Below the pieces are notes generated by a model. The model searched no databases. It had not been told where the DNA came from and saw only the letters and a list, made by a program, of their open reading frames with translations. A stretch of DNA of 64,000 bases from a virus (lineage: Duplodnaviria > Heunggongvirae > Uroviricota > Caudoviricetes): IMG/VR virus record IMGVR_UViG_3300025602_000002, positions 102,718 to 166,717 of that record; one strand, written 5' to 3'. Below, piece after piece: positions 3,597-17,097 of the stretch; within the stretch, counting starts at the first letter, position 1; the number at the start of each line of letters is the position of its first letter. The translations under genes were made by a program, and so were the position numbers.

Positions 3597-3971
3597 TTAA
3601 GATGCATTTAATAATAAGTGTTGAACGTATCCAGCCTCTATAAAGTGATAAAGCGCTGCAAAAGCTGGTACTAAAAAAGCCACCCCTACAATATGTAAGA
3701 TTATTATGTATTTAGCTATTAAGATTATTGCTATTGCGGCAATAACTTTTAAACTAGCTGAAGTCAAACTTAACTGTTGACTATACTGTACCCCTGCGGT
3801 TTTATATGCGCTAATTGAGAGTAACCCTAACCCTGCAAATATAAAATTGCATACTATTATTTCCACAGAGGTAGTTAAGAGCCCTATTGCAAGAAAAATG
3901 CAATACCATAGAATCATAACGCTAAATCCGTTTTTTATTTGTATATTCCCTAATTGTATAAATGAGAACAT
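3597..3971 (-). CDS. Hypothetical membrane protein
   Basis: Several hydrophobic helices; directly downstream of tRNA-Ile. Confidence 0.4.
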   Translation of the reverse strand: MFSFIQLGNIQIKNGFSVMILWYCIFLAIGLLTTSVEIIVCNFIFAGLGLLSISAYKTAGVQYSQQLSLTSASLKVIAAIAIILIAKYIIILHIVGVAFLVPAFAALYHFIEAGYVQHLLLNAS

Positions 3972-3983
3972 ATTTTTCCTTTC

Positions 3984-4352
3984 TTATTTTTTATATTTTA
4001 TCCATTCCGCAAGCCATATATCTGCTCGAGAATGTATTTTTGGCCAAATAAGTCCCCTAACTTGCACAGGGATTATTTTGAGCTTGTTGAGACGTGTTTT
4101 AAACTGCGCTTTTTTGAAGGCCTCCGCAGCTTCTTTCGTAGGCAATAAATGCCAACCTGAAGTATATACCGTAGCATGACTTCCATCCTTTATTGGTTTC
4201 TGATCAGACTTTAGCCATTTATTAGGCTCTAAGTGTCTAGATCGGTTTGTTCCATGGAATAGTGTGCGTACTCCGCCCTTATACTCTTCCACAATTCTAT
4301 AATATATTGTCGTCGTTTTCAGTTGTCGAATATTAGGGCGATTGTCTTTCAT
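3984..4352 (-). CDS. Hypothetical protein
   Basis: ORF of 122 aa, TAA stop. Confidence 0.4.
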   Translation of the reverse strand: MKDNRPNIRQLKTTTIYYRIVEEYKGGVRTLFHGTNRSRHLEPNKWLKSDQKPIKDGSHATVYTSGWHLLPTKEAAEAFKKAQFKTRLNKLKIIPVQVRGLIWPKIHSRADIWLAEWIKYKK

Positions 4353-4720
4353 TAATTATTTTTGATTGTTATCGTTATTTTTGTATCTTTGGGAATTAGT
4401 TCCTTTCCTGGGCACCATCTCGGACTTGGTATATCTCCAAAAGTAGTAAAGCAGTTTTCGCCTCCAATTTTTGGAAAAGTTGTTACCTTACAGCAATACT
4501 GCATGTACTGTATTCCCTGCCCATTTGCAGTATATTCATGAGTATCTACCAAGTATTTACAACCGTTACAATACTGATCGTAGTTATCTATTTCCCAAAT
4601 GGTAGCTAAGTCATATCCTTTACTTTCACAGGTAGGGCAAGGAATTGGCCACGGTACTAAACCTTTAGCGTCATATTTACCCTTACCCTCGCACGTTTTA
4701 CAAACTATTTTTACTTTCAT
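4352..4720 (-). CDS. Cys-rich, probably zinc-binding, protein
   Basis: CxxC pairs: CKTCEGKG, CPTCESKG, CNGCKY. Confidence 0.4.
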   Translation of the reverse strand: MKVKIVCKTCEGKGKYDAKGLVPWPIPCPTCESKGYDLATIWEIDNYDQYCNGCKYLVDTHEYTANGQGIQYMQYCCKVTTFPKIGGENCFTTFGDIPSPRWCPGKELIPKDTKITITIKNN

Positions 4721-5271
4721 TAGCAGTTACCTATAAATCCACGATCCTCTTGTAAAGAATCATAAATATCGGGAATTAACCCCTTTTTAAATCTTTGTTC
4801 TTTCCGATGAGCTAATACTACATTTACGGCTGCTGCTAAATTAGTACAGTGGGCCGTGGGTAGTACCACAAATCGATGACAATGTTGTAATGTTTTCCAA
4901 TCCAGCCCACCATCTTCTGGGCCGAATACATACACTGCGTTTTCAGGATGTTCAAAATCAAATAACATTTCAGATCCAGGCCTTAATTCTATTGCTACCG
5001 GAACTGTGTCTTCGCTAAAATTTTTCAATGTATGTTTTAACGTATCAACTCTATGCATAGATACTTCTTTGTATCCCTTCATACGTTCTTCCCTTGGAAG
5101 TCTATATTTTTCTGTCCATTCATCTGGATGCTGCACTCTATGTCCAGTCCAATAAACTTGCTCTGCTCCCCAACATGACGCTGCCCTAACTGTAGCTCCA
5201 ACGTTAACTGCAAACTTTGGGTTTGTCAGCATTATTGCAGGAGATATACCTTTAATTCTTTTAGGCTTCAT
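4720..5271 (-). CDS. SpoU/TrmH-family (SPOUT) RNA 2'-O-methyltransferase-like
   Basis: Motifs AVYVFGPEDGGL and FVVLPT...NLAAAVNVVLA match the SPOUT motifs II and III. Confidence 0.45.
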   Translation of the reverse strand: MKPKRIKGISPAIMLTNPKFAVNVGATVRAASCWGAEQVYWTGHRVQHPDEWTEKYRLPREERMKGYKEVSMHRVDTLKHTLKNFSEDTVPVAIELRPGSEMLFDFEHPENAVYVFGPEDGGLDWKTLQHCHRFVVLPTAHCTNLAAAVNVVLAHRKEQRFKKGLIPDIYDSLQEDRGFIGNC

Positions 5272-5631
5272 TTATAGCTCCTTAAACTCTTCCACAAATT
5301 TTGCCCAGGTTCCTGCATGGTCTAATCTAATGGATATTACATTATCATTATATCCGCATTGTATATAAGTACTAGATATGGAATGTAGTGTATAAGCCAC
5401 TGCCATACAAGGGCCCGTGATATCCATATTAGCATACGGAGTCCCATGTAATATGCTAATTATGTCAGGATCTATTATTTGGGCATACTTATTAACATCG
5501 CATGAGTCGCGGAGTCCTGCCTGTACTATAGCTCCTCGTATTAGTGTTAGGGCTTCTATCTGCCAAGTTTTTTCTGAATAGGTAGGGACTACTGGGTTAG
5601 TATAATCTTTATATGTTTTAATTTGTATCAT
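5272..5631 (-). CDS. Hypothetical protein
   Basis: ORF of 119 aa. Confidence 0.35.
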   Translation of the reverse strand: MIQIKTYKDYTNPVVPTYSEKTWQIEALTLIRGAIVQAGLRDSCDVNKYAQIIDPDIISILHGTPYANMDITGPCMAVAYTLHSISSTYIQCGYNDNVISIRLDHAGTWAKFVEEFKEL

Positions 5632-5639
5632 TTTATTTT

Positions 5640-6330
5640 TTGGTTAAGTTATCAGTTATAAACTAAATCGCCGAATAGAAGGGATCTTGGGGCTCTATTC
5701 GACGACTCTTCTCCAGTATTGCTACTGGGTAAAGGTGTTTCAAGTTGTTCAGGTCGCTCACCGAGGATCTCATGAATGTTTGGCGTTAGTTCGATCGGTG
5801 ATCAACCCGATAGCGTAGGCCCTCTCAACAGATCGCTGTGTGCGATACATCCTCTGTTCCAATCGTACATCCTCTGTGCCCTCAAGGCAACTTGAAAGTT
5901 TAATTAATGTATATAAATAGTGTGCTGTTACGCCAAAGACAACTAGGAGGCACTCCTAGCTACAGCCCCCAATGCCTTTTCCCTGGAGGTAGATTTTATC
6001 CAACTGCTACGTCATGTTTAGAGCATGAGTTATCACTCTTTAAAAGATGGCTGCTTCTAAGCCTACTTCCTACTTATAATTTGGTCGCGAGTGTAGTTTA
6101 TTACACTACATTCCCTCTCTAACAAAGAGGTTCCTAGACTTAGACGAACTCGCGTTAATTGGTGGGGAAGTACAGGATCTTGCACCTGCGCTGATATGCA
6201 TCAGCATATATCCGGATAACTTCCCCTCTAGCAGTTAGGATAGGACTTAAACCTATATATGTTACTAATCGCCAGTGACTGTTCACGCCACCCGTTTTTC
6301 ACATGTCTTAGTCTATTTGGACGACCTAAC
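5640..6330. other. GC-rich structured noncoding region upstream of a tRNA cluster
   Basis: No ORF of 60 aa or more on the gene strand. GC content is visibly above the AT-rich coding regions. Stable hairpins such as CTAGGAG-GCA-CTCCTAG are present. Confidence 0.4.
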
Positions 6331-6333
6331 TAT

Positions 6334-6420
6334 TGGTTGCGGTGACAGGACTTTAACCTGTGTCCTCCCCCCTGCCTGGGGGGCGAGCTATTCTCTGCTC
6401 TACACCGCGCCTATTAGGTT
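6334..6420 (-). tRNA. Degenerate initiator-like tRNA element (pseudo-tRNA?)
   Basis: C1-A72 mismatch and a GCAACCA 3' end like the adjacent tRNA-fMet, with good D- and T-arms. The anticodon arm is CCCCC-CAGGCAG-GGGGG with A at position 33, so it is not a canonical decoding tRNA. Confidence 0.35.
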
Positions 6421-6467
6421 TATTGTACCTTATTAACTAATAGGATTATTGCCTTCCGACAATGAAT

Positions 6468-6545
6468 TGGTTGCGGGGGAGGGATTCGAACCCCCGACCT
6501 CAAGGTTATGAGCCTCGCAAGCTACCAGACTGCTATCACCCCGCG
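6468..6545 (-). tRNA. tRNA-fMet (initiator, CAT)
   Basis: Close match to the bacterial initiator: CGCGGGG...GGCTCATAACC...GGTTCGAATCC...CCCCGCAACCA, with the C1-A72 mismatch and an encoded CCA. Confidence 0.75.
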
Positions 6546-6614
6546 TTTGATTTTTAAATTGGTAGCTCTCAACCTCAGCTCATGAGGCCACGGTTTTGTG
6601 CACTGAGAGCCTTG

Positions 6615-6686
6615 TAGCGGGAGCGGGGATCGAACCCGCGTTGAAAGAGTTATGAGTCCTTTCCGGAAGCCAACATCCTTCCCGCG
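6615..6686 (-). tRNA. Atypical tRNA-like element with a CAT anticodon motif
   Basis: Perfect T-arm GCGGG-TTCGATC-CCCGC and a 6-of-7 acceptor stem, but the anticodon arm has a 9-nt loop ACTCATAAC. It may be a degenerate Met/Ile2-type tRNA. Confidence 0.3.
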
Positions 6687-6916
6687 TCTATTTCTTTTCC
6701 GGAGCATTTTCCAATGGACAACCTTTTAAAAGACCTCTATTTTTAAAGTCCGCCTTTTCTCCAAATTGTAACGTCCATTTATCCGGTTCTGACAGTTTGC
6801 TGATTAGAGGGCATCCAGTCCATTTAGGGCATTGGGAACAACTTCCCACCCTTATCATTTTTTGCATAACTGCTCCTTTATTTTGTATACTGGTTATATA
6901 CTTAAGTATAGTGGTT

Positions 6917-7300
6917 TTAATTCTCAAAATCAAATAAGAATTCTACATTATCTACTTCAATTAATTCTTTTAGTCTATTACAAATGATTTTTTCCCAGAT
7001 ACCGTACTTATTAGCCAACCCGCTTCCTAGTTTTGATATGAGGAATATGTTATCATGTTTGACTTGTATCATAGCTGTTAACATATCAAATTCGTTTTCA
7101 AAAACTGTTTTGTATTCTTCCGGATGGTAGTATGAGCTATCTTTATAATTAGGATACTTTTTTGTAATAAACCCAAGGACATTAGGGAGGTCTCTAAGCT
7201 CTGAAGCACCTTTTTTACCTTTTCGTAATAAATTATCTCCAAACACAAAAATGTGTGTGGGATTTTCTATTAGATATTCTTCTGTAATTATTCTTTCCAT
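6917..7300 (-). CDS. Hypothetical protein
   Basis: ORF of 127 aa immediately downstream of the NAD cluster. Confidence 0.4.
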   Translation of the reverse strand: MERIITEEYLIENPTHIFVFGDNLLRKGKKGASELRDLPNVLGFITKKYPNYKDSSYYHPEEYKTVFENEFDMLTAMIQVKHDNIFLISKLGSGLANKYGIWEKIICNRLKELIEVDNVEFLFDFEN

Positions 7301-7303
7301 AAT

Positions 7304-7840
7304 TTATTCTTTATATAGTTGATGTCCTATAATATAGCCAAAGATACTTCCGTCGAGTAATCTTCCAGCCAACTCATACTCAGCTTTACAAATGTGTTCT
7401 CTAACTTTACCGCTACTTGCGTGAGTATACTCTGAAATCTTTCCTAAATCAATCGACTCTATAGCTGCGCATTTTTTAATTTCATCAATATCCTGCCACT
7501 TATGAACTTCTAACCCAGTATCATCATCGCCTACATAAATTACAATATTCACATTATAATACATAATCTGTATATGATTAATTAAACTCATCATATACGT
7601 ATGGTTATAATGTAATATAAAGTTATTTGGGAAAGCTTTAGCACACATTGCTACTTTGTCGTTGTAATCGCTTTGAAGAGGTTGTTCTATTTTAAAGGGA
7701 TTAAATGACGGGCAAATAAGTAATAAATCTGAACTAGGGTATTCGGAGTTATATATTTTATTATTTAAGTATTCAACAGCTGCCATATGTCCCAAGTGAG
7801 GAGGATCAAATGACCCCCCGTATATGTGAATTGTTCTCAT
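7304..7840 (-). CDS. Nicotinamide/nicotinate mononucleotide adenylyltransferase
   Basis: N-terminal motif IYGGSFDPPHLGHM, the (H/T)xGH motif of this family. Confidence 0.75.
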   Translation of the reverse strand: MRTIHIYGGSFDPPHLGHMAAVEYLNNKIYNSEYPSSDLLLICPSFNPFKIEQPLQSDYNDKVAMCAKAFPNNFILHYNHTYMMSLINHIQIMYYNVNIVIYVGDDDTGLEVHKWQDIDEIKKCAAIESIDLGKISEYTHASSGKVREHICKAEYELAGRLLDGSIFGYIIGHQLYKE

Positions 7841-8433
7841 TATTTCATCCTTATATATTCGTAATTTGGAGATTCCATAAAAGATAATCCTGCTGCAAAT
7901 GACAGAAGTCTGCTTGAGATTTCTACTTTTTTTGCTTTTTCAGAGGCTATGAAACTAAGTAAATTATAACCATTAATTAAGATTATTTGGTCTATATCTT
8001 CAAAGTCTCCTAACGACTGTTGCTCTGGTAAGTAACTTCCTAAAGCTCCCATTACTAAATGAGTTGCTTCATCTGACATTCCTGCGGTATTGATGGCTGC
8101 AGGAAATACTCTACAAGCCCCGTCTACTTCATATCCAGTTTCCTCCAACAATTCTCTACGCATAGCGTCTTCTGGAGTTTCTCCCTCTTCTATCATACCT
8201 GCTGGAAATGACCAAATGTAGTTATCTAACGCAGGTCTCCACTCCTTAATTAGTAAGAATCTTCCAGAGCGGTCATGAAATACTCCCGCTACAGACTTTT
8301 GGTTTCCAATTCTTCTAACTATTTCCCAATCAGTAGTTTCTCCAGCTTCATTTTCTAGATTTAATGTTTCAGCTATTACATGTTGGGGCTCTATTAAAGC
8401 GTCTGATACAAATTTAATCTTAATTTTTGGCAT
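7840..8433 (-). CDS. Nudix hydrolase, possibly ADP-ribose pyrophosphatase
   Basis: Nudix box GMIEEGETPEDAMRRELLEETG. Confidence 0.75.
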   Translation of the reverse strand: MPKIKIKFVSDALIEPQHVIAETLNLENEAGETTDWEIVRRIGNQKSVAGVFHDRSGRFLLIKEWRPALDNYIWSFPAGMIEEGETPEDAMRRELLEETGYEVDGACRVFPAAINTAGMSDEATHLVMGALGSYLPEQQSLGDFEDIDQIILINGYNLLSFIASEKAKKVEISSRLLSFAAGLSFMESPNYEYIRMK

Positions 8434-9224
8434 TAGGCTATGTCCCTTAAAAAGCTTGGAATATTATCGCGTTTATGACGGCTATTGTTTATCATACTTT
8501 CGATATTATTCATAACTTCTACAGAAACCGGAGATGGTACATTTTCACAGTCCATAGTACTCCACCAAATCAAATAAGAATCTAGTTCTTGGTATGTAAA
8601 TCCAAATTCTTGTTCATCAGTTTGTCCTTCCCATAATCCCGCAGAAGCTACCGCATTTGCATATTCGTTAGGTAGCTCTAATTCTCTAGCTATTTCTCTA
8701 ACTTCAAATTTGTAAAACTCTAACAATGGTTCAAAATCTACTCCACCGTCTCCATATTTAGTAAAGTACCCTATTTCGTATTCAGACTTGTTAGTTGTTC
8801 CTATTACGAGGTTATTGGTACTATTTGCTAGCAGGTACAGTGCAGACATGCGGGCCCGGGCTTTCATATTCCCTTTTGTGAGGGTAGTTATTGCCTCTGT
8901 TTGGATATAAGTCATACCCTCTATCATGGCGTCTACAGAAGTGGTAATATCTATACAATTAAGGTTTAATTGGAGATGTTTTGCAAGAGCTAGTATATTA
9001 TCAGCTCCATGAAATAAATTAGATATTGAGGGAATAACTGTTTCATGGTAAGGCAGCCACACCGCCATAACCTTCTCTGGCCCTAAAGCTCTTTGAGCTA
9101 AAGCCGCAATTACTGCGGAGTCTACTCCTCCAGATAATCCTATGACTACCCCATCAGCACCTGCATCTTCTACTGTTCTTTTTATAAAATCTTGTAAGTC
9201 AATTATGTCTTGTCTAAGTTTCAT
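8433..9224 (-). CDS. nadE: NH3-dependent NAD+ synthetase
   Basis: PP-loop motif GLSGGVDSAV; length typical for NadE. Confidence 0.8.
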   Translation of the reverse strand: MKLRQDIIDLQDFIKRTVEDAGADGVVIGLSGGVDSAVIAALAQRALGPEKVMAVWLPYHETVIPSISNLFHGADNILALAKHLQLNLNCIDITTSVDAMIEGMTYIQTEAITTLTKGNMKARARMSALYLLANSTNNLVIGTTNKSEYEIGYFTKYGDGGVDFEPLLEFYKFEVREIARELELPNEYANAVASAGLWEGQTDEQEFGFTYQELDSYLIWWSTMDCENVPSPVSVEVMNNIESMINNSRHKRDNIPSFLRDIA

Positions 9225-9241
9225 CTGTTTTCCTTTTTAAA

Positions 9242-9640
9242 TTAAGCAAAGCAGTTGTTTAATATGGTAACCGCCCTGTGTATGTTGTTATCTATGTAAG
9301 CTATTCCTCCTGCAGCATTTACTAACTCTACAGTAGCTTTTAAACTTTTGAGCTGTCCTTTATCAAATCCATCAGGCCTAACGTGCAATATAGTTCGTTT
9401 GCCGTGGGTGTGTGCGCTATTTACAACTTCTGCTATGGAAAATACTCCTTGCATTTCTTTAGAAATAAGATAAAAATGTACATTACATTTATTGTCTTTT
9501 TCATCCATTTCTATTGCTTGGCACGCCTCTGTCCAGTCTTCCACATCTGGATTAAAGTAGTCTATAGTTAGTTGAGGAATTATTTGATTCCTCCAGGTTG
9601 TATGTGCGCAAGTGCCTCCTAAAAATACTCTGTTTATCAC
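9242..9640 (-). CDS. Hypothetical protein, possibly nucleoside 2-deoxyribosyltransferase-like fold
   Basis: 132 aa with an N-terminal MINRVFLGGT Rossmann-like start. Weak. Confidence 0.3.
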   Translation of the reverse strand: MINRVFLGGTCAHTTWRNQIIPQLTIDYFNPDVEDWTEACQAIEMDEKDNKCNVHFYLISKEMQGVFSIAEVVNSAHTHGKRTILHVRPDGFDKGQLKSLKATVELVNAAGGIAYIDNNIHRAVTILNNCFA

Positions 9641-9816
9641 TGTTCCTTTCCTTTTTTACTGTTTAAATCATCTTGGATATTGTTATAAGTTTTTAACAAT
9701 TTAGCTTTTTCTTTGGCTCGTTTTTGATCATCTCCAATAGCCCATAATTTTAGAAACCCAGTCCATGTGACTTGTGGTTTTTCTTTCTTTTCTTTCATTT
9801 ATCCTCTTTGTTATTA

Positions 9817-9905
9817 GTGGCTAGGACAGGACTCGAACCTGCATACGCACCATGCGTCCACTATATAGTATATCTACTGAAGTGTTACTGAGTCGAACAG
9901 CCTAC
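9817..9905 (-). tRNA. tRNA-like 3' half or degenerate tRNA
   Basis: Canonical T-arm GCAGG-TTCGAGT-CCTGT and an acceptor 3' strand CCTAGCC-A, but no complementary 5' acceptor strand could be found. An internal hairpin ACGCA-TGG-TGCGT is present. Confidence 0.25.
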
Positions 9906-9950
9906 TACGCGAAGATGTTTCCCAATTACATCACCTAACCATTTTTTTTG

Positions 9951-10023
9951 TGGGCCCTGCTGGACTCGAACCAGCATCCTACACATTATGAGTGTGTTGC
10001 TCAGCCAATTGAGCTAAAGGCCC
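9951..10023 (-). tRNA. tRNA-Met(CAT), elongator or Ile2-type
   Basis: Acceptor GGGCCTT/AGGGCCC, anticodon stem ACACA/TGTGT with loop CTCATAA, T-loop TTCGAGT. Confidence 0.75.
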
Positions 10024-10116
10024 TGGAGGAGAGGACAGGGATCGAACCTGCAGACCCCCTTGCGGGGGCGCACCGGTTTTCAAGACCGGCAGAATACCAT
10101 TCTCTTACACCTCTCC
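10024..10116 (-). tRNA. tRNA-Ser(TGA), class II
   Basis: Acceptor GGAGAGG/CCTCTCC, anticodon stem CCGGT/ACCGG with loop CTTGAAA, long variable arm GCGCCCCCGCAAGGGGGTC, encoded CCA. Confidence 0.7.
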
Positions 10117-10210
10117 GTAAAGAGCGACGCGATACTTTTTTCTGCAGTTATTATATTGCGCGCTCCCATCTCCTTCTGCTCTTACACGCAAGCGATGGCA
10201 GATGAGTCTG

Positions 10211-10282
10211 TGGCGAAAGATGGAATCGAACCACCGTCGCGTGGATCTTCAATCCACCGCTCTACCCCTGAGCTACCCCGCC
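10211..10282 (-). tRNA. tRNA-Phe(GAA)
   Basis: Anticodon stem GTGGA/TCCAC with loop TTGAAGA, T-loop TTCGATT. The acceptor stem has three G-U pairs. The 5' end overlaps the stop of CDS 10273..10776. Confidence 0.55.
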
Positions 10283-10776
10283 GGAGTATTTAATAATTTA
10301 ATTGCTTGTTCTACATGCTCATCTTGTAGACCTAAATCTGTTTTTGTTTGTACTAGTCGATCCATTAAATGCTCCATGTCTGAGTCATCGTCCAAAATTA
10401 TGAAGGAATCGGCTCTTTCGTGGTAATGTTCTTTAGAGAACTCAGGATCTGCGTCGTATTCGGCATTATGCTCATCAAGCCATTGTTGAATTTCTATGCC
10501 TCTTCTTTTATGTAGTCTTGGGGTACTCTTCCCTATTACGAAGGGTAAATTGAATCCCAAGGCAGCAAATAGATGTCTAAACATAAATGAATCACCATGA
10601 AGTCTCCAAGTTGAGGATACTACTATTTGTGCTCCAGTTGCGTCAATTATTTGCTTTAAGCGTTCTACTAGCGTTATGTCTGGAAGCCATACATTTCCTA
10701 ACTTTTCTTCATGTCGTTTATGTACCGACTCACGATTATTGAGTACGCCGTCGATATCTAAAAATATTACTTTCAA
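10273..10776 (-). CDS. HAD-superfamily phosphatase
   Basis: Motif I (V)IFLDIDGVLN. A TTG start is likely. The TAG stop lies within the 5' end of tRNA-Phe. Confidence 0.5.
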   Translation of the reverse strand: MKVIFLDIDGVLNNRESVHKRHEEKLGNVWLPDITLVERLKQIIDATGAQIVVSSTWRLHGDSFMFRHLFAALGFNLPFVIGKSTPRLHKRRGIEIQQWLDEHNAEYDADPEFSKEHYHERADSFIILDDDSDMEHLMDRLVQTKTDLGLQDEHVEQAIKLLNTPAG

Positions 10777-11133
10777 TTATTCAATTCCTTCTTCTTTTTT
10801 CCATTTCTGGTAACGTTCAACTCTTTCCAAATATATCTCATACTCGGCTCGAGTTCCGCCTTTGCACCCTCCGTGACCGTCTGATCTGATCTGCCAACCA
10901 ACAAAGGCATAATGATCCTTGCATTTAGCTTCATATTTCGCTAATTCGTCTTCTTCAATAGGAAAAAAGTCATAAATTTCTGTTAAACGTTTAAAGGTGT
11001 AGTTGTCATGAGCGTTTGCTCTTGTGCCGTCTGAATATTTTATAGGTTTATAGCTTCTATAGCAATTGTTTGATTCGTCTAATTCCCATATATAGGAATC
11101 GTCTGGCCTGACTATATATTTTGGATTTTTCAT
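10777..11133 (-). CDS. Hypothetical protein
   Basis: ORF of 118 aa, same frame as and adjacent to the HAD phosphatase. Confidence 0.4.
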   Translation of the reverse strand: MKNPKYIVRPDDSYIWELDESNNCYRSYKPIKYSDGTRANAHDNYTFKRLTEIYDFFPIEEDELAKYEAKCKDHYAFVGWQIRSDGHGGCKGGTRAEYEIYLERVERYQKWKKEEGIE

Positions 11134-11153
11134 TTTTTAGTTCCTAAGTTAAT

Positions 11154-11242
11154 TGGGGTGTCGGACGGGATTTGAACCCGCATGAGGAGCAACTCCAACT
11201 CGGGTCACAGCCGAGTGCATTACCAAATCTGCCACCGACAAC
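11154..11242 (-). tRNA. tRNA-His(GTG) with an encoded G-1 and a long variable arm
   Basis: Anticodon stem CTCGG/CCGAG with loop CTGTGAC. The extra 5' G pairs with discriminator C73, which is the His identity element. CCA is encoded. The 17-nt variable arm and a U1-C72 mismatch are unusual. Confidence 0.5.
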
Positions 11243-11243
11243 G

Positions 11244-11327
11244 GGCTGATGGTAGGATTCGAACCTACGTGGACTTTCGTCACCTGATTACAAATCAGGA
11301 CCTTTCGACCGCTCAGGTAACACCAGC
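11244..11327 (-). tRNA. tRNA with anticodon TGT (Thr-like) and class-II-like long variable arm
   Basis: Acceptor GCTGGTG/CATCAGC, anticodon stem CCTGA/TCAGG with loop TTTGTAA, T-arm GTAGG-TTCGAAT-CCTAC. The architecture is atypical. Confidence 0.45.
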
Positions 11328-11337
11328 TCTATTTAAA

Positions 11338-11362
11338 AGTGGGGACGCTTGGCCCCCACGTA
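11338..11362 (-). terminator. Rho-independent terminator downstream of the NAMPT gene
   Basis: Hairpin GTGGGG-ACGCTTG-GCCCCCAC followed on the minus strand by TTTTAAATAG. Confidence 0.5.
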
Positions 11363-11363
11363 T

Positions 11364-12509
11364 TTAAACCTTTAATATTTGTTTACATAACGCAATCTCG
11401 TCTGGATCGCCTGTATGTTTTCCCGGGGAATCTGACAACTTAATAGCTGGTTCCCATACATCATTTAATTTAACAGCGTTAATTTTGATTACCATATTCA
11501 ATGGTGTAACGTCTGTATCATTAGTGAAGTTGGTACCAATTCCGTAAGCCGTTTTAATGTGCTTATTCACTTCTTTTTCGATGTGTACCGCTTTTTCGAG
11601 ATTTAAACTGTCTGAAAAGATTATTAATTTACTTTTCGGATCAATGTTTAAATGCTCATAGTGGTTAATAATTTTGTTAGCAAACACAAGCGGGTCCCCA
11701 CTGTCTTGCCTCACACCGTCAAATAGTTTAGAATACTTCATGGCAAATTCTTTAAGAAAAACGTCTGTAGTAAAGGTATCTGGTAAAGCTGTTCCCAGAC
11801 TTCCTTGAAACACTTCTACCCATTTCTCTAATACCATAGTAGTTGCCATCTTGTAACCGTATAGGCGTGATAAGACCATATATACTTCGTGAGCTTGTGT
11901 ACCTGTTGGGGTTAAATTATATTTTTTGGCAAAATGAACATTAGAGGTTCCTACCAATCCATGCTTTAAAATATTAAGAGTTTTATCATGTACGTCATAA
12001 GAGTGCCTTCGTCTAGTTCCGAAGTCGGCTACGCTTAAATGATTATCGTGTATAATTCTCAATTTTTCTATATTCTGTTTTTCTAACTCATACAGCGGGC
12101 TTAATTCCCCATTAGACATCTCTGAAATAATAGCCATAATAGGTACTTCCCACAGTATAGTCCTATACCAGGGACCTCTAATACATATCTCAAATTGATG
12201 TTGTTTACCGGGTTCATAAATTACTTCTACTTCAGAAGAGTCATACGCATACCCTTTTAAAAAGTCCCTATACACGGGAGTGAAATAATAACATTTCTTT
12301 TTTAAAAAAGTTGCTTCTGAATCAGTTAACCGTAGTGATCCCATTGCGTTAATATTGCTTATCAATTTTGTAGCAAACGAGTCACTAAACTCAACTGGAG
12401 TTCTCAATATCCACTTGTATTCTACTTCCAGGTTTGGAAATTGCTGACAAACAAACATTTGTTGTGTAAATTTATATATGTCGTTATCTAAAATTGAATT
12501 AATTAACAT
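11364..12509 (-). CDS. nadV: Nicotinamide phosphoribosyltransferase (NAMPT/NadV-like)
   Basis: 381 aa, consistent with NadV homologs (call from family-level resemblance, no specific motif cited). Part of the NAD salvage cluster. Confidence 0.8.
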   Translation of the reverse strand: MLINSILDNDIYKFTQQMFVCQQFPNLEVEYKWILRTPVEFSDSFATKLISNINAMGSLRLTDSEATFLKKKCYYFTPVYRDFLKGYAYDSSEVEVIYEPGKQHQFEICIRGPWYRTILWEVPIMAIISEMSNGELSPLYELEKQNIEKLRIIHDNHLSVADFGTRRRHSYDVHDKTLNILKHGLVGTSNVHFAKKYNLTPTGTQAHEVYMVLSRLYGYKMATTMVLEKWVEVFQGSLGTALPDTFTTDVFLKEFAMKYSKLFDGVRQDSGDPLVFANKIINHYEHLNIDPKSKLIIFSDSLNLEKAVHIEKEVNKHIKTAYGIGTNFTNDTDVTPLNMVIKINAVKLNDVWEPAIKLSDSPGKHTGDPDEIALCKQILKV

Positions 12510-12802
12510 TATTTGGTATCCTTTCCAGAGTGTATTGTACGTAATACGGTTAGGCTGGAAGAACCGTCAACCACCTCTATTATACAACGCTCGATAGCAT
12601 AGTCTTTCAATAAAAAGTGTCTTTCTGCTATCTTTCTCCAACCGTAGTTATCGTATCCTTGAACGTCTATTTTAGTGGGACTAACTTTAGTTATTGCCCA
12701 CCTACGTTGTGTCCAGTATGACGGAATGTGGTCTTCGCCAGTACTAGCTCGTACCGTTATAACGTCATCTACTTTTAATTTAAACATCTGTTTCCTCTCC
12801 AT
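12509..12802 (-). CDS. Hypothetical protein
   Basis: ORF of 97 aa; its stop overlaps the nadV start (ATGA overlap). Confidence 0.4.
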   Translation of the reverse strand: MERKQMFKLKVDDVITVRASTGEDHIPSYWTQRRWAITKVSPTKIDVQGYDNYGWRKIAERHFLLKDYAIERCIIEVVDGSSSLTVLRTIHSGKDTK

Positions 12803-12940
12803 TAAGTTTATCGAGTTTTCTACAAATTTGTAATAGAAGTATATCTGTAAGGGTTAGTCTGCCATTTCCAAATTTGGTTTCCAAAATAAGTTGTAAATCC
12901 TCATCTATGGTAGCTTCTAAAGGTAGTATAACCTCACTCA

Positions 12941-13276
12941 TTAATAAACCTTCTCGAGTATTTCCCAACGTGCCTCGGGAATATTAATTACTTGAACTAT
13001 TTCGCCATTGACAAAAAAAGTTAGTTTGTTGTCACCTATTGACACACGATCCGCTAAGTATTCTTTGTCATATTTAATATTATAAGCTTTGTCATAAACT
13101 GTAAGAGTATAGGTAGTTCTAGAATCATTTCCATAACCTAATTCTGTTTTCGTACCATTCGCATCTATAACACCAGAATTAAAAAGCTTTGGTATTGCCA
13201 CTGAGCCTATAATCCCTGCAATTACTAGAACAATAATTAGTTCTATTATTGTAAATCCTTTTTTACTTCCATTCAT
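12941..13276 (-). CDS. Type IV pilin-like (prepilin N-terminus) protein
   Basis: N-terminus MNGSKKGFTIIELIIVLVIAGIIGSVAIP matches the class III signal (G|FTLIE). Confidence 0.4.
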   Translation of the reverse strand: MNGSKKGFTIIELIIVLVIAGIIGSVAIPKLFNSGVIDANGTKTELGYGNDSRTTYTLTVYDKAYNIKYDKEYLADRVSIGDNKLTFFVNGEIVQVINIPEARWEILEKVY

Positions 13277-13724
13277 TTTCTTTTAGTTCCTTTCTTACTT
13301 TCATTAATGCTTTTCCTAAAAGGTTTGTACCTTTACCATTTTTTCCGATGCCCCATATTGCGTCGTTCCATTCAGCCGCGTCTTCTATTAATTCTGCATC
13401 TTGTGTACATAGTAAAATCTTTTTGTAAAGATCTATTTTGAATTTTTCTCTTAAGCACATAACCATAATGTCATATTTTACTTCTTCCCAATCTGGGCGA
13501 AGATTTACTTTATTACCCGCACGTTTAGATTTGCCAGGGGTTTTTAACTGTGCTATTTCTTTACGTATTGTGTTATTAAATGTTTTATGTGCTTGAAACG
13601 CATGCTCTACTGTTGGATATTCAATACCTTCTATAGTAATAGGGGAATGTGCAAAATTAGAAAAATATTGATCATAGCCTGATGGCTTCTTTGCGGAGAA
13701 AATTATTTGGTTTGTGTTTTTCAT
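13263..13724 (-). CDS. NADAR-domain (YbiA-like) protein
   Basis: Motif FSNFAHSPITIEGIEYPTVEHAFQAHKT resembles the NADAR/DUF1768 core. Confidence 0.45.
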   Translation of the reverse strand: MKNTNQIIFSAKKPSGYDQYFSNFAHSPITIEGIEYPTVEHAFQAHKTFNNTIRKEIAQLKTPGKSKRAGNKVNLRPDWEEVKYDIMVMCLREKFKIDLYKKILLCTQDAELIEDAAEWNDAIWGIGKNGKGTNLLGKALMKVRKELKENEWK

Positions 13725-13754
13725 TTGTTAGTTTGATTTTTATTATTTAAAAGT

Positions 13755-13838
13755 GTGGGCAGAGAAGGATTCGAACCTCCGAACCCCGTAGGGACCAGAT
13801 CTACAATCTGGCGCTTTTGACCGCTCGGCCAGCTGCCC
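13755..13838 (-). tRNA. tRNA-Tyr(GTA), class II
   Basis: Anticodon stem CCAGA/TCTGG with loop TTGTAGA, variable stem CCC/GGG, T-loop TTCGAAT, acceptor GGGCAGC/TCTGCCC. Confidence 0.65.
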
Positions 13839-13845
13839 AACTTAA

Positions 13846-14553
13846 TTATCGTTCTCTTCCATGGTAGTCGTTCGGATATAAATCTTCTGATAAGTCTGAT
13901 TGCCAGTACTCATGCGTATTTACATCCATGATAGTAAGTTTTCCTTCCCAACCTGATCCGGTGTCTAACATCCATAGATTGGAAATATTTAAAGGTTTAT
14001 CCGTTCCAAACATTCCTGTAGTTGTATGCCCAACGAATACCTCTTTATAATCTTTAAATTCACGCTTTTGAGTTACGTAAATTTTTGCCACTTCAATGAT
14101 GTGACGATTCCAATACAAATTATACGGATCCTGATCCCGGATAGGGACCTTTTGATCGAATCCTCCGTGTACGTAGATTTTGTTCTCATCATCGATGTGG
14201 TAAAATACTGTTTTGTTACGTAGATAATGTAGGTGCTTAGTTCTCCATTCTAGTGGGGCTGACACGTAGCTGGCAATTGTAGCCATACCACCTTGTCTAG
14301 TCCACAATGAGGGAGTTTGTCCATATTCTAACCACCCAAGTAGCCATACGTCGTGATTACCTATAACCTATATTAAATTCTTAATCTTTAAAAGTTCTTC
14401 GAAACACTTTGCCGTATCTGGCCACCCGTCATTTATATCGCCAAGAAAGACTAATGTATCCTCCTCATAATTGAAGTTAGAACGTTCGAAACATTGGAGC
14501 ATGCCCTGGTAATTACCATGTACGTCTCCCAGTACAAATATTTTATTTTTCAT
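13846..14553 (-). CDS. Calcineurin-like Ser/Thr phosphatase (PPP family) interrupted by one in-frame TAG at 14368-14370
   Basis: Track ORFs 14368..14553 and 13846..14307 share a frame. The translation reads ...GDVHGN...GDINDGW...KIKNLI-TAG-VIGNHDVWLLGWLEYG...HGGF. The PPP phosphoesterase motifs continue straight across the stop. Confidence 0.6.
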
Positions 14554-14789
14554 CCTTCATCCTTTGTAATGTGGTTTATACAGGCAGCTATTCTACTATC
14601 CTGGTAAAATGGATCCATTGCTGTAGCTCTAATCTCTTCTGCTACTTCCGGATAAAGTATATAAAGTGCATTAAAAATACATTGCCCACGTCTCCAGAGG
14701 GGGTTGTTTAGTCCCATTTTATTTGTTGTTTGAAAGAGGGTTTTCATTTCCTCTTGAGTTAATTTATTCATTACCAACGTCTCCCGCAC
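14550..14789 (-). CDS. Hypothetical protein
   Basis: 79 aa; its TGA stop overlaps the ATG of the phosphatase (ATGA overlap). Confidence 0.4.
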   Translation of the reverse strand: MRETLVMNKLTQEEMKTLFQTTNKMGLNNPLWRRGQCIFNALYILYPEVAEEIRATAMDPFYQDSRIAACINHITKDEG

Positions 14790-15019
14790 TCACACTCCCA
14801 GCGTCCTTTATAAACTTTGGTTGCTAATAGTCCGCAACTATGGCATGTCATTTTTGGGGCTATACGGGTATTTATTCCGAATAGTACTCCTTTTAAAAAG
14901 GTGTCAATTACTTGGAAAAGCCCGGTAGTAATTTTATCTTTAGTTTCTTGTTTCATAATTATTTCTCTTTTTTTTCTGTAGCACGAGTGGGCGTCGAACC
15001 CACCTTCCCAGGTTTCCAA
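14771..15019 (-). CDS. Small zinc-ribbon protein
   Basis: CHSCG...CECGRRW. Confidence 0.35.
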   Translation of the reverse strand: METWEGGFDAHSCYRKKREIIMKQETKDKITTGLFQVIDTFLKGVLFGINTRIAPKMTCHSCGLLATKVYKGRWECECGRRW

Positions 15020-15051
15020 AACCCAAGAGCCTCGCCCCCGGTCACCGCACT
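14979..15051 (-). tRNA. tRNA-like element, possibly Pro(TGG)
   Basis: T-arm GTGGG-TTCGACG-CCCAC. The acceptor stem AGTGCGG/TCGTGCT needs three G-U pairs. The anticodon region TGGGT-TTTGGAA-ACCTG is poorly paired. Confidence 0.3.
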
Positions 15052-15063
15052 AAACCTATTTAG

Positions 15064-15300
15064 CTACCTAACTTTCCTAGCTACCGCTATTATTTCATGT
15101 ACAAATACATCTCCCAATTCATAGCTGCCATAAGTATAGGGAGACTTAACTCCGCAAAACCATCTAGCGCCTTCTTTGTTATCATCTATTTGCCATTTTT
15201 TTAAAACTTTCCATTCCCAAGACTGATCTAAAGTTCTCCATATTTCATATGGGTTGTCAAGAGGTCTGGTCTTTCCACATAAATTCTTCTGTCTTGTCAT
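15064..15300 (-). CDS. Hypothetical protein
   Basis: Track ORF trimmed to the internal Met (MTRQKN...) because the upstream part overlaps tRNA-Glu. TAG stop. Confidence 0.35.
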   Translation of the reverse strand: MTRQKNLCGKTRPLDNPYEIWRTLDQSWEWKVLKKWQIDDNKEGARWFCGVKSPYTYGSYELGDVFVHEIIAVARKVR

Positions 15301-15326
15301 TTTATTTTTCTGGTTTGTTACCTTCG

Positions 15327-15398
15327 TAGCGCATAGGAGAATCGAACTCCTGTACCCAGACTGAAAACCTGGTGTCCTAGCCATTAGACGAATGCGCC
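15327..15398 (-). tRNA. tRNA-Glu(TTC)
   Basis: Acceptor GGCGCAT/ATGCGCT, anticodon stem CCAGG/TCTGG with loop TTTTCAG, T-arm AGGAG-TTCGATT-CTCCT. Confidence 0.55.
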
Positions 15399-15410
15399 GT
15401 TATTAATGAG

Positions 15411-15484
15411 TGGAGAAGAGGGGATTTGAACCCCTGACCCTCTGCGTGCAAAGCAGTTGCTCTCCCAGACTGAGCTACAACCCC
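15411..15484 (-). tRNA. tRNA-Ala(TGC)
   Basis: GCTTTGCACGCAG anticodon arm and canonical D-arm as in bacterial tRNA-Ala. The G3-U70 identity pair is present. There are T-T mismatches at positions 5-68 and 6-67. Confidence 0.6.
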
Positions 15485-15490
15485 ATTAAT

Positions 15491-15727
15491 TTATTCTGTT
15501 TGTTCTGTTGCTTGTTTTTCTTCTTCTGCCATGACTACTTCTGATTCGGCCCATGAAAGTATTAAAAGATACCACACGATTCCACAAATGGCATAACAAG
15601 CTAGTCCATATGTTTTTGCCCATCCGGCTTTCTTTGTATACTTTGGCATTAGCGACATTACTAGGAACATAGTTCCAAGCCCAAATATAATTCCCACTGG
15701 TATGAGAAGTACTATAATTCCCATCAT
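15491..15727 (-). CDS. Small membrane protein
   Basis: Two transmembrane helices. Confidence 0.4.
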   Translation of the reverse strand: MMGIIVLLIPVGIIFGLGTMFLVMSLMPKYTKKAGWAKTYGLACYAICGIVWYLLILSWAESEVVMAEEEKQATEQTE

Positions 15728-15752
15728 AACGTTGTCCTTTCTTTTTATTTCG

Positions 15753-15825
15753 CAGAGCGCACGGGGATCGAACCCGCAGTCTCCGGCGTGACAGGCCGGC
15801 GTGTTACCATTAACACTTCCACCCT
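15753..15825 (-). tRNA. tRNA-Asp(GTC)-like
   Basis: Anticodon stem CCGGC/GCCGG with loop CTGTCAC, T-arm GCGGG-TTCGATC-CCCGT and discriminator G as in tRNA-Asp. The 5' strand GGGTGGA does not pair with the 3' strand GCGCTCT, so it may be a pseudogene or I may have misplaced an end. Confidence 0.4.
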
Positions 15826-15834
15826 ATAAATTAG

Positions 15835-15906
15835 AGCCTAGGGAAGGAGTTGAACCTCCATTTCTCTTAGCGGACTAAGAGCGTCTTACCATTAGACGAC
15901 CACGGC
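15835..15906 (-). tRNA. tRNA-like element with an 18-nt anticodon arm (possible 8-nt anticodon loop)
   Basis: D-arm CGTC-TAATGGTAA-GACG and T-arm GGAGG-TTCAACT-CCTTC. The anticodon arm CTCTT-AGTCCGCT-AAGAG is one nt longer than canonical. The acceptor stem has two central mismatches. Confidence 0.35.
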
Positions 15907-15908
15907 GT

Positions 15909-15981
15909 TGGTTGGGGGTGTGGGATTTGAACCCACATTCGCCTGCCTCTGCAGACGTCCTTTACGTTGGATGAGCCCCCA
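15909..15981 (-). tRNA. tRNA-like element with encoded CCA and a tetraloop in place of the anticodon loop
   Basis: Perfect T-arm GTGGG-TTCAAAT-CCCAC and an ACCCCCA-A-CCA 3' end. The central arm is TCTGC-AGAG-GCAGG with only a 4-nt loop. Confidence 0.3.
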
Positions 15982-16018
15982 TTAATTTTTTCTCTCTATG
16001 TCAAAAAACTAGAATCTT

Positions 16019-16258
16019 CTATAGAAGGTTCTTTTGTTTTAAAATACGATTTACATGTAGTTTTGTAATTACAGGCTGTTTATTTTGACTAGCCATATGT
16101 AACGCAATTTTAACCTCTTTACCTTTGTGCCCTGGTTTGCTTGTTGCAAATTTTACAATTCGTCTTGCTATGTTCATTTCCCGTGTTTCACGCCCCAGGT
16201 ATCGTTGGCATTTTATTTTGTCTCTACCCTGTTTGTTAGAGTTTGATTTTTGTGACAT
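16019..16258 (-). CDS. Small basic protein
   Basis: 79 aa, rich in Lys/Arg. Confidence 0.35.
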   Translation of the reverse strand: MSQKSNSNKQGRDKIKCQRYLGRETREMNIARRIVKFATSKPGHKGKEVKIALHMASQNKQPVITKLHVNRILKQKNLL

Positions 16259-16267
16259 TAGCTTTCC

Positions 16268-16663
16268 TTATTTTTTAAATCTTTTTTCCAATTGTTTATA
16301 AAGCTCAAAATCGTCTTTTTCTTTCTTATTCTTCCGTCTTGTCGCGTTTCGCTTTCTAGTTATTTCAGATTTTTTTGCTCTATCTTTTAATACATTCGTT
16401 CTAATAGTAAATTCCTCATCCGTCTCTTTTCGACTCACGCTAACCTCTAATTCGTCGAGCTCTATCCTATCGTCCCACGAGTTGAACTGGCTACAAACTG
16501 CGGTAAACCTCACATCTGGGTTGTCTACCCCTGTCTGTTGTCTAGAAAGAGCTATGATGTGCCTTAGTACCTCTTGTACGTCTTCAAGTTTTCCTTCTAG
16601 ATCATCATAATCATACGGGTGTGCTATTATTATTTTAACTGTTTTCTTTTCATAACTTGCCAT
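16268..16663 (-). CDS. Hypothetical protein
   Basis: 131 aa with a basic C-terminal tail. Confidence 0.4.
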   Translation of the reverse strand: MASYEKKTVKIIIAHPYDYDDLEGKLEDVQEVLRHIIALSRQQTGVDNPDVRFTAVCSQFNSWDDRIELDELEVSVSRKETDEEFTIRTNVLKDRAKKSEITRKRNATRRKNKKEKDDFELYKQLEKRFKK

Positions 16664-16685
16664 TGTTTTTTATTGGTTTTATTTG

Positions 16686-16756
16686 AGCAACTAGAGAGAA
16701 TCGAACTCTCATCGTCTGAGTGGAAGTCAGAAGTCTTACCGTTGGACCATAGCCGC
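16686..16756 (-). tRNA. tRNA-Gly(TCC)
   Basis: Acceptor GCGGCTA/TAGTTGC, anticodon stem TCTGA/TCAGA with loop CTTCCAC, T-arm GAGAG-TTCGATT-CTCTC. Confidence 0.65.
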
Positions 16757-17083
16757 TTTAATTGGTAAAGCTGTGACAATTTCATTAGTTTTCTTATCAT
16801 ATACTACTTTGTATCTAATGCTATTTTGCTCAATAATCATAACTAACCTGTGTCCTACTTTTTCTAGAACGCTTACTCCTTGGTCGTTATACTCGTTCCT
16901 AATTCTATTCAATAATTCTTTTCTTAGCTTTTTGGTCAACGTAATATCATAACGCTCTTCAAATCTTTTTACAGCGTGTTGTCGTTGATTGTGTTTATAA
17001 CTCATGTTGCCCTTTCTATTTATTTGAGCAGCTAGACGGATTTGAACCGACATTCCAACCATGGCAAGGTTGTGTCCTACCAT
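16757..17083 (-). CDS. Hypothetical protein
   Basis: Track ORF 16736..17083 trimmed because its end overlaps tRNA-Gly. Confidence 0.35.
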
Positions 17084-17097
17084 TAGACGATAGCCGC
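17027..17097 (-). tRNA. tRNA-Gly(GCC)
   Basis: Acceptor GCGGCTA/TAGCTGC, anticodon stem CAACC/GGTTG with loop TTGCCAT, T-loop TTCAAAT. Confidence 0.65.

Follow-up and report, generated by a model that had tools for sequence, protein, structure and literature searches.

We describe here a 64-kb stretch of DNA from a virus of the Caudoviricetes (IMG/VR record IMGVR_UViG_3300025602_000002, positions 102,718 to 166,717) that carries genes for the salvage of nicotinamide adenine dinucleotide (NAD+). The whole stretch is referred to as the window, and all coordinates below are window positions. An earlier reading of the letters alone (the original prediction) had placed five contiguous NAD-related genes interleaved with tRNA genes at 7304-13724, together with a distal isochorismatase-family hydrolase gene, and all six of these open reading frames (ORFs) are present at exactly the predicted coordinates, all on the minus strand (Table 1). 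The NAD region is composed of minus-strand ORFs that are closely packed or overlapping, with tRNA genes interspersed, and the G+C content is ∼37% across the window. The interleaving with tRNA genes is as described, but the five NAD genes are not contiguous; they are separated by seven other ORFs and five tRNA genes, with a sixth tRNA gene just past the NADAR gene. The intervening ORFs include those for a Nuc_deoxyri_tr2-like protein, a HAD_SAK_2 protein and a pilin-like protein.

The source of the window is a large uncultured phage, probably of the jumbo class. Many metagenomic contigs, the longest of 211,738 bp, encode proteins identical to those of the window, with 12 blocks in the 0.2-1 Mb class, and one database labels one protein of this phage as coming from a metagenome-assembled genome (MAG) of Candidatus Scalindua. 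Positions 7000..14000 had no megablast match among 50,697 phage records. Pfam scans covered 50 ORFs of the window, and the ORFs of at least 100 aa outside this set all lie within 29.4-64 kb.

Table 1. Positions of the NAD-related genes, the nicotinamidase cassette and associated features in the window
Feature	Position	Strand	Basis and remarks
Divergent NadD-like nicotinic acid mononucleotide (NaMN) adenylyltransferase	7304..7840	-	PF01467 (CTP_transf_like) 36 bits; predicted step 3
Nudix hydrolase, ADP-ribose/ADP-sugar pyrophosphatase type	7840..8433	-	PF00293 60.5 bits
NadE, ammonia-dependent NAD+ synthetase	8433..9224	-	PF02540 228.5 bits; predicted step 4
Nucleoside 2-deoxyribosyltransferase-like protein	9242..9640	-	PF15891 39.5 bits (cut-off 30); next to nadE
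tRNA-Met, tRNA-Ser(UGA), tRNA-Phe	9950..10282	-	ARAGORN and Rfam; between nadE block and HAD_SAK_2 gene
HAD_SAK_2 phosphatase-fold protein	10273..10776	-	PF18143 92 bits
tRNA-His, tRNA-Thr	11154..11327	-	ARAGORN and Rfam; directly downstream of pncB
Terminator-like hairpin and T-run	11339..11359	-	directly after pncB; 8-bp stem with 6 G-C pairs, then TTTT
PncB, nicotinate phosphoribosyltransferase	11364..12509	-	NAPRTase_N and NAPRTase domains; predicted step 2
NADAR-domain protein, YbiA-like	13263..13724	-	PF08719 105.9 bits (cut-off 35.1)
Terminator-like hairpin	17812..17837	-	closes nicotinamidase-vWA-PP2C-kinase-orf128 unit; 11-bp stem with 7 G-C pairs, then T8
Eukaryote-like Ser/Thr protein kinase, 563 aa	18301..19992	-	weak Pkinase match, E 2.2e-4; fourth cassette gene
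PP2C-type protein phosphatase	19989..20768	-	PP2C_2 49.4 bits (cut-off 24); third cassette gene
TerY/YegL-type vWA protein	20897..21661	-	immediately downstream of nicotinamidase-like gene; conserved partner
Nicotinamidase-like isochorismatase-fold hydrolase, 287 aa	21692..22555	-	family profile and AlphaFold 2 (AF2) model; predicted step 1

Enzymes of a predicted nicotinamide salvage route

The phosphoribosyltransferase of the region had been called a nicotinamide phosphoribosyltransferase (NAMPT), but by its profile and structure matches it is PncB and not NAMPT. It scores above the NCBIfam cut-offs of both NF003704 (424 bits against 379) and TIGR01514 (387.5 against 269.55), and all six of its matches among solved structures are NAPRTases (best 2im5, 1.3e-90), with no NAMPT. 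The sole signal for a "nicotinamide phosphoribosyl transferase" is a weak partial match to phrog_448 (1.6e-11), and no second ORF in the window has the size of a NAMPT. The lesson for annotation is that NAMPT calls in phages need testing against PncB.

The genes for NadE, the Nudix hydrolase and the NadD-like protein form a block in which the start of the Nudix gene overlaps the stop of nadE by 1 nt and the start of the nadD-like gene overlaps the stop of the Nudix gene by 1 nt, which indicates co-translation across both junctions. The NAD synthetase call is well supported (TIGR00552, 223.7 bits against a cut-off of 63.65), and the protein of 263 aa is without a glutaminase domain. It had been regarded as an extra gene that would serve both the amidated and the deamidated routes; with PncB as the entry phosphoribosyltransferase, NadE would instead be indispensable, as the enzyme of the final step in the deamidated route, the only one encoded. 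The Nudix assignment likewise stands, and the best solved relatives of this protein, aligned over nearly its full length, are of the NUDT5 type (2.6e-15) and the Thermus ADP-ribose pyrophosphatase (4e-11).

The adenylyltransferase is the most divergent of these proteins and had been described as acting on nicotinamide mononucleotide (NMN). Its membership of the adenylyltransferase family is upheld by PF01467, but the NMN type is not, since the best NCBIfam families are all NadD (49 and 46 bits), albeit under every NCBIfam cut-off. It carries a NadD-type GGSFDPPHLGH motif and a C-terminal SSGKVR, and when it was combined with its remote relatives into a profile, B. subtilis NadD (1kam) was matched at 3e-50, whereas the same profile is far weaker against archaeal NMN adenylyltransferase (NMNAT) and NadR structures (5e-8 to 2e-5). 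We regard the protein as a likely member of the NadD family. Because the alignment behind the profile is dominated by ordinary bacterial NadD sequences, we infer the preference for NaMN over NMN from the motifs and the gene context. An exhaustive search found just three relatives below 1e-10 among 1.84 billion representatives, and a word-indexed homologue search returned only the protein itself. A DUF7831 protein is encoded 4 nt downstream of the nadD-like gene (6917-7300, minus strand), and the viral locus L026 of our surveys (below) also pairs a DUF7831 homologue with NadD.

These assignments bear directly on the original proposal of a NARP2-type pathway of NAD+ reconstitution, in which NAMPT would form NMN and an NMNAT, alone or fused to a Nudix domain, would convert it to NAD+, with NadE and NADAR as extras. 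NARP2 consists of NAMPT and an NMN adenylyltransferase (bioRxiv 10.1101/2024.02.11.579819). The window does have an NMNAT-family gene adjacent to a Nudix gene, and the phrog_448 match points in the same direction. However, PncB, which has an NAPRTase_N domain and passes the PncB equivalog cut-offs, is found in NAMPT's place, the adenylyltransferase is of the NadD type, and a NadD-Nudix fusion (the NatV-like arrangement suggested for relatives) is found neither in the window nor in the 79 loci surveyed around the nicotinamidase-like gene. The NARP2 reading is rejected at the family level, and we consider it extremely unlikely.

The remaining enzyme of the route would be the long isochorismatase-fold hydrolase. 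This protein has no match of its own in Pfam, NCBIfam, PHROG or PADLOC, and among its 3288 homologues are some carrying PF00857. A family profile of 20 sequences matches only nicotinamidases in the PDB, with yeast Pnc1 the best at 6.3e-9, followed by three others. Six residues do not vary within the family: D10, K178 and C228, which correspond in the alignment to Pnc1 D8, K122 and C167, and D75, H77 and H144, which correspond to the DxH and WPxHC motifs of Pnc1. By analogy with Pnc1, we take the first three to be the catalytic triad and the second three to be metal ligands. An Asp-His-His metal site, which binds the pyridine nitrogen, sets nicotinamidases apart within the superfamily. The AlphaFold model has a predicted local distance difference test (pLDDT) score of 86.9, and its top eight Foldseek matches are all nicotinamidases, from Acinetobacter, yeast, Drosophila, Pyrococcus and M. 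tuberculosis. The isochorismatase-family call thus holds, in that the matches are to nicotinamidases and not to an unrelated cysteine hydrolase. Judged by its sequence family and its modelled fold, the protein is a nicotinamidase-like cysteine hydrolase, for which hydrolysis of nicotinamide is predicted.

The protein is ∼80 residues longer than canonical PncA. Where this long form lies beside PncB in other viruses there is as a rule no short PncA alongside (for example in L132, L149, L162 and L170), and the long form takes the usual place of PncA next to PncB and NadE.

Recurrence in other viruses and the nicotinamidase cassette

PncB is present in 13 of 50,697 phage records, including three huge uncultured phages and the cultured jumbo phages Atu_ph07 and Phosso. 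Sinorhizobium phage Phosso encodes NadE, PncB, Nudix, NMNAT, a PF00857 isochorismatase and a PF15891 protein within 7 kb, six families that are all represented in the window. In MT835470 the order is PncA-PncB-NadE-x-NadD-Nudix...HAD_SAK_2, and the 735-kb phage LR756501 and Atu_ph07 have subsets of the NAD gene set. A scan of IMG/VR with the single PncB protein returned nothing and an alignment query was needed, with which at least 584 viral stretches with a PncB relative were found. The module is common in uncultured large phages.

Two sets of IMG/VR loci were surveyed, with gene families counted within 10 kb of the central gene. The first comprises the 80 loci closest to the window PncB (of the at least 584), where NadE is found in 58, an isochorismatase or PncA in 53, Nudix in 29 and NadD in 23, and where HAD_SAK_2 (10 loci), NADAR (six) and the Nuc_deoxyri_tr2-like protein (six) also recur. 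The second comprises 79 loci with a long nicotinamidase-like gene (L018-L096); some of these are near-duplicates, which leaves closer to 65 independent observations. At least one other NAD-related gene lies within 10 kb of the long nicotinamidase-like gene in 45 of the 79, and PncB or NadE in 32. As the same gene sets surround PncB and the nicotinamidase-like gene in ∼160 viral loci, their clustering is not due to chance, and each accessory gene of the window cluster is a recurrent companion and not a chance neighbour.

The second survey also shows that the nicotinamidase-like gene has closer partners, which the original prediction had missed. Its view of the gene as a distal member of the NAD cluster is correct as to the nicotinamidase-like character, but the gene belongs primarily to a cassette (18301-22555, minus strand) in which, in the usual order and on one strand, genes for the nicotinamidase-like protein, a vWA protein, a PP2C phosphatase and a protein kinase follow one another. 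A vWA gene is found in 75/79 loci, PP2C in 72/79, the kinase in 72/79, and all three together in 69/79.

In both a bacterial MAG and a further phage, the nicotinamidase-like homologue is followed by a gene whose product is 46% identical to the vWA protein. The window vWA protein has no direct match in Pfam, NCBIfam, PHROG or PADLOC, and a three-sequence profile has none in the PDB; nine of 24 family members match Pfam VWA, and the AF2 model (pLDDT 91.6) gives Foldseek matches to integrin I domains, ITIH1 and C2a. For the kinase, a profile of 23 orthologues yields 71 PDB matches, nearly all of them Ser/Thr or dual-specificity protein kinases, and the positions of the Gly-loop, Lys, catalytic Asp/Asn and DFG-like Asp are invariant.

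A TerY-type vWA protein, a PP2C phosphatase and a Ser/Thr kinase together constitute the TerY-P triad, which has been described in bacterial Ter-associated and anti-phage loci. The window encodes the same three components together, and none of the three proteins matches the PADLOC TerY-P models. The bacterial MAG (GCA_024235135.1, gammaproteobacterial; locus L012, 4312-7597) has the long nicotinamidase-like and vWA pair beside TerD and HIT genes, without PP2C or kinase, so the pair also exists outside phages. We found no description of the four-gene cassette in the literature searched, and absence there is not proof of novelty; the nicotinamidase-vWA-PP2C-kinase cassette is a new element in the sense that the link has not been remarked upon in that literature. 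We suspect that the triad controls, or is a partner of, the nicotinamidase step. The linkage provides a testable handle on TerY-P-like triads in phages, and it prompts one to ask whether phosphorylation regulates NAD+ salvage in viruses.

An alternative is that the long isochorismatase-like protein has no part in salvage and is the effector or partner of the triad, acting on another amide or ester substrate, and that its proximity to the NAD genes reflects a shared accessory island. The collinear cassette in 69 of the 79 viral loci, the bacterial vWA pair beside TerD and HIT genes, and the 47 of 79 loci with neither PncB nor NadE within 10 kb all fit such an explanation. It does not sit easily with retention of the putative Asp-His-His metal site and Asp-Lys-Cys triad residues or with best sequence and fold matches that are all nicotinamidases. 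In addition, PncB and NadE, the former being otherwise rare in the phage records as noted above, often adjoin the cassette or lie inside it; the two genes directly precede it in loci L049, L059, L079 and L084, and are inserted within it in L045, L070, L071, L132, L162, L170, L171 and L175. We consider this explanation unlikely.

Accessory genes and surrounding features

The NADAR assignment is secure, with a TIGR02464 match (104 bits against a cut-off of 73.7) in addition to that of PF08719. Among solved structures, E. coli YbiA (2b3w) is matched at 1.5e-23 and the only other solved NADAR matched, 8bau, at 2.9e-7; the protein also belongs to a common phage family (phrog_1017, 4.8e-40) and has a weak match to Phage_30_3. 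Besides its occurrence near PncB, NADAR lies near the nicotinamidase-like gene in 9/79 viral loci. Phage NADARs of the AdfN type reverse DNA ADP-ribosylation by DarT1 (PMC11825919; PMC11543638), and the YbiA-like branch is reported to be almost absent from phages and to lack the anti-DarT activity for which it was tested (PMC11825919). A small protein encoded between NADAR and pncB (12941-13276, minus strand) has a type IV pilin-like N-terminal methylation motif (PF07963, 28.8 bits), and its ORF overlaps that of NADAR by 14 nt.

HAD_SAK_2 is a family defined and named from RNA-repair proteins. In the PncB-centred survey it recurs in the order PncA-PncB-NadE-NadD-Nudix-HAD_SAK_2, as also seen in MT835470, and it stands at the end of phage NAD clusters in loci L133, L157-L161, L165-L169, L176 and L009. 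Given this recurrence, phage NAD or ADP-ribose metabolism may include a phosphatase step that is as yet uncharacterised. The PF15891 family of the Nuc_deoxyri_tr2-like protein recurs in the Phosso cluster and the PncB-centred loci, and is recorded at 12659-13111 of locus L004. The window and Phosso proteins are not alignable pairwise (E 0.19), and have only the Pfam family in common.

ARAGORN predicts 23 tRNAs in the window, of which Rfam supports 21. Within positions 1..40000, Rfam gave no NAD+ riboswitch and no family other than tRNA. Three of the tRNAs are unusual. One with a CUA anticodon (2676-2752, minus strand; Rfam tRNA, 58.9 bits) is labelled tRNA-Pyl by ARAGORN and would read the amber stop codon, and another (15834-15906, minus strand; Rfam, 38.3 bits) has an anticodon loop given by ARAGORN as '???'. 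The tRNA-Ser(UGA) at 10024-10116 (minus strand) scores slightly better with the tRNA-Sec model (50.3 bits against 47), for which its long variable arm is the probable reason. As for the two terminator-like hairpins of Table 1, the counts of promoter-like and terminator-like sites in the region show no excess over the shuffled expectation, such that both hairpins are weak evidence.

Genes for RNA repair and modification surround the NAD genes (17099-17776, 22610-26735, 37050-37769 and 4720-5271, all on the minus strand). They encode RlaP, PNKP (kinase and HAD phosphatase), a PHA02142-type RNA ligase, a T4 Rnl1-like ligase, a Thg1-like tRNA-His guanylyltransferase and a SpoU methylase. The NAD genes could accordingly be regarded as part of an RNA-repair and tRNA island, supplying NAD+ and clearing ADP-ribose by-products for the healing of RNA ends; the targets of NADAR, Nudix and HAD_SAK_2 would then be ADP-ribose derivatives, either soluble or linked to RNA. 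The interleaving with tRNA genes between these flanking genes is in keeping with such a role, as are the origin of the HAD_SAK_2 family, the recurrence of RlaP, Thg1 and Rnl near the nicotinamidase cassette, and the link drawn by Iyer et al. between NADAR and RNA processing (PMC9503650). The scanned ORFs, however, contain no KptA/Tpt1, Macro or 2H domain, the RNA ligases are of ATP-dependent families, and the NAD gene clusters of most PncB-centred loci are free of RNA-repair genes. We regard this role as quite unlikely.

Several other features of the window were recorded. Two neighbouring SPFH/Band-7 proteins (99 and 82 bits) are encoded at 31511-33396 on the minus strand. A 346-aa protein (603-1643, minus strand) has a class II aldolase/adducin domain confined to its C-terminal half, with no domain assigned over the N-terminal 190 residues. 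The GC skew changes sign at ∼40000-52000, and the ORFs move to the plus strand at 46-52 kb; Pfam and PHROG gave no match for any of the larger ORFs at 38-50 kb.

Proposed pathway and relation to known systems

We propose, with a probability of about 60%, that this large phage encodes a four-step, deamidated salvage route from nicotinamide to NAD+ that maintains or rebuilds NAD+ during infection, and whose nicotinamidase step is tied to the vWA/PP2C/kinase triad. The general idea of a phage gene set that rebuilds NAD+ from salvage precursors is in this respect supported by the families of the four enzymes. In the first step, the nicotinamidase-like protein would hydrolyse nicotinamide, yielding nicotinic acid plus ammonia; PncB would then convert nicotinic acid and phosphoribosyl pyrophosphate (PRPP), with ATP, to NaMN; the NadD-like enzyme would adenylylate NaMN to nicotinic acid adenine dinucleotide (NaAD); and the ammonia-dependent NadE would amidate NaAD to NAD+, with the ammonia released in the first step as a co-substrate. 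This would be the Preiss-Handler route, entered through a nicotinamidase. The Nudix hydrolase, whose gene lies between nadE and nadD and is translationally coupled to both, probably cleaves ADP-ribose to AMP and ribose-5-phosphate, by which it would both clear ADP-ribose and feed carbon back to PRPP and ATP via host enzymes. NADAR, HAD_SAK_2 and the Nuc_deoxyri_tr2-like protein would be recurrent accessories of the salvage module. Direct observations here are the assignment of the genes to families, the residues at the active site and the recurrence of the synteny.

The most likely purpose would be to keep NAD+ up, or bring it back, in the infected cell, possibly in opposition to NAD+-depleting defences. 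This is suggested by the starting point of the route, nicotinamide, which is a common product of TIR, SIR2, SEFIR and RES NADases, by the ADP-ribose pyrophosphatase that accompanies the module, and by the use of PRPP, which as in NARP2 would make the route indifferent to modification of ADP-ribose. With nicotinamide and PRPP as its starting materials, the route would operate regardless of the form in which a defence NADase leaves the ADP-ribose half. The PRPP-based NARP2 overcomes aRES defence whereas NARP1 fails to do so (bioRxiv 10.64898/2026.01.28.702374). Substrates, direction of flux, counter-defence and regulation by the triad are the parts of this model that we infer.

A less likely alternative, as suggested for NAD-jumbo phages (PMC11662467), is that the module is a general metabolic booster, providing NAD+ for replication or for NAD+-consuming enzymes of the phage, for example in slow-growing or NAD-poor hosts, with no specific link to defence. 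Jumbo phages with complete NAD+ pathways are reported to encode many NAD+-consuming enzymes as well, and their pathways to be able to complement those of their hosts (PMC11662467); as shown for NARP2, NAD+ production by a PRPP-based route does not depend on the firing of a defence (bioRxiv 10.1101/2024.02.11.579819), and the module is widespread in IMG/VR, in the numbers of stretches given above. Against such a booster stand the starting substrate, which is an NADase product, and the company of an ADP-ribose pyrophosphatase and NADAR; moreover, no NAD+-dependent ligase, ADP-ribosyltransferase (ART) or sirtuin is found among the scanned window ORFs.

Several observations weigh against the salvage pathway as we have drawn it. 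The nicotinamidase-like gene is 9 kb from pncB, and it is more tightly associated with the triad (69/79 loci) than with PncB or NadE (32/79), such that it could have another task. The NadD-like protein is so divergent, falling under all NCBIfam cut-offs, that its NaMN preference rests on motifs and context. The embedding of the NAD genes in a tRNA and RNA-repair region suggests an alternative purpose. No PRPP synthetase was found among the scanned window ORFs, and PRPP must therefore come from the host. Finally, no structural gene was identified among the scanned ORFs of the window, those at 40-50 kb having no Pfam or PHROG match, and the phage identity of the window thus rests on context.

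A bolder version of the proposal, which we hold to be doubtful, is that the Preiss-Handler module is a fourth NAD+ reconstitution route in which the long nicotinamidase, as the entry enzyme, is coupled physically or through regulation to a vWA/PP2C/kinase phospho-switch. The switch would sense the state of the cell (for example NAD+ collapse or activation of a defence) and gate salvage, while non-canonical products of NAD+ breakdown would be the substrates of HAD_SAK_2, the Nuc_deoxyri_tr2-like protein and the YbiA-like NADAR. NARP1, NARP2 and NARP3 have been shown experimentally to defeat NAD+-depleting immunity, and we found in the literature no experimental test of phage PncB/NadE or of a "NARP4" route. 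If the module does act in counter-defence, it would be a fourth, ADP-ribose-independent route, and would explain the presence of nadE in so many big phages.

NARP1, which consists of Adps (Prs-like) and Namat (bioRxiv 10.1101/2024.02.11.579819), and NARP3, which consists of PnuC and NadR (PMC13464706), have with the window route the common goal of restoring NAD+ in infection, but differ from it in substrates and chemistry, and none of their families (Prs-like Adps, Namat, PnuC and NadR) is present among the 50 Pfam-scanned window ORFs. The window NADAR, with its weak Phage_30_3 match, is a stand-alone phage NADAR like AdfN/T4 gp30.3 (PMC11825919), although it is of the YbiA-like branch.

The window triad resembles TerY-P in having the same set of three domains in adjacent genes on one strand. 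It differs in that it is phage-encoded, is preceded by a nicotinamidase-like gene, is often interleaved with NAD salvage genes, and matches no PADLOC TerY-P model.

A further parallel is with the NARP2 of Vibrio phage KVP40, which comprises the NadV NAMPT and the NatV NMNAT-Nudix. Both systems would make NAD+ from nicotinamide and PRPP, both combine an ADP-ribose-type Nudix with an adenylyltransferase, and neither needs ADP-ribose as a substrate. The window route, however, would use four enzymes and not two, would pass through nicotinic acid, NaMN and NaAD, and would require NadE; PncB replaces NAMPT, the adenylyltransferase is of the NadD type, and the Nudix is a separate gene upstream of the adenylyltransferase gene. 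The logic is similar, with different chemistry and a higher ATP cost for the window route. With the bacterial Preiss-Handler route and pyridine nucleotide cycle (PncA, PncB, NadD and NadE) the window has the same four families in the same logical order, and differs in that its set is phage-encoded, its nicotinamidase is longer by the extension noted above and lies in a kinase/phosphatase/vWA cassette, and its NadD is extremely divergent.

NAD-jumbo phages have been defined as having a genome of >200 kb and at least one complete NAD+ synthesis pathway (PMC11662467, Microbiome 2024). Their Preiss-Handler clusters, such as that of Kuafu_71, likewise group PncB, NadD and NadE on a large phage genome, and the role proposed for them is autonomous NAD+ synthesis, possibly in counter-defence. 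Those phages are of gut origin and were studied in silico, whereas for the window phage one protein carries the Candidatus Scalindua label mentioned above. The pncB-nadD-nadE core in jumbo phages was thus already known in 2024 from in silico work; the nicotinamidase step, the Nudix, HAD_SAK_2, NADAR and Nuc_deoxyri_tr2 genes and the vWA/PP2C/kinase cassette are not described in the sections of that study consulted. What the window adds is a complete nicotinamide-to-NAD+ version of the module, with its recurrent accessories and the nicotinamidase-vWA-PP2C-kinase cassette.

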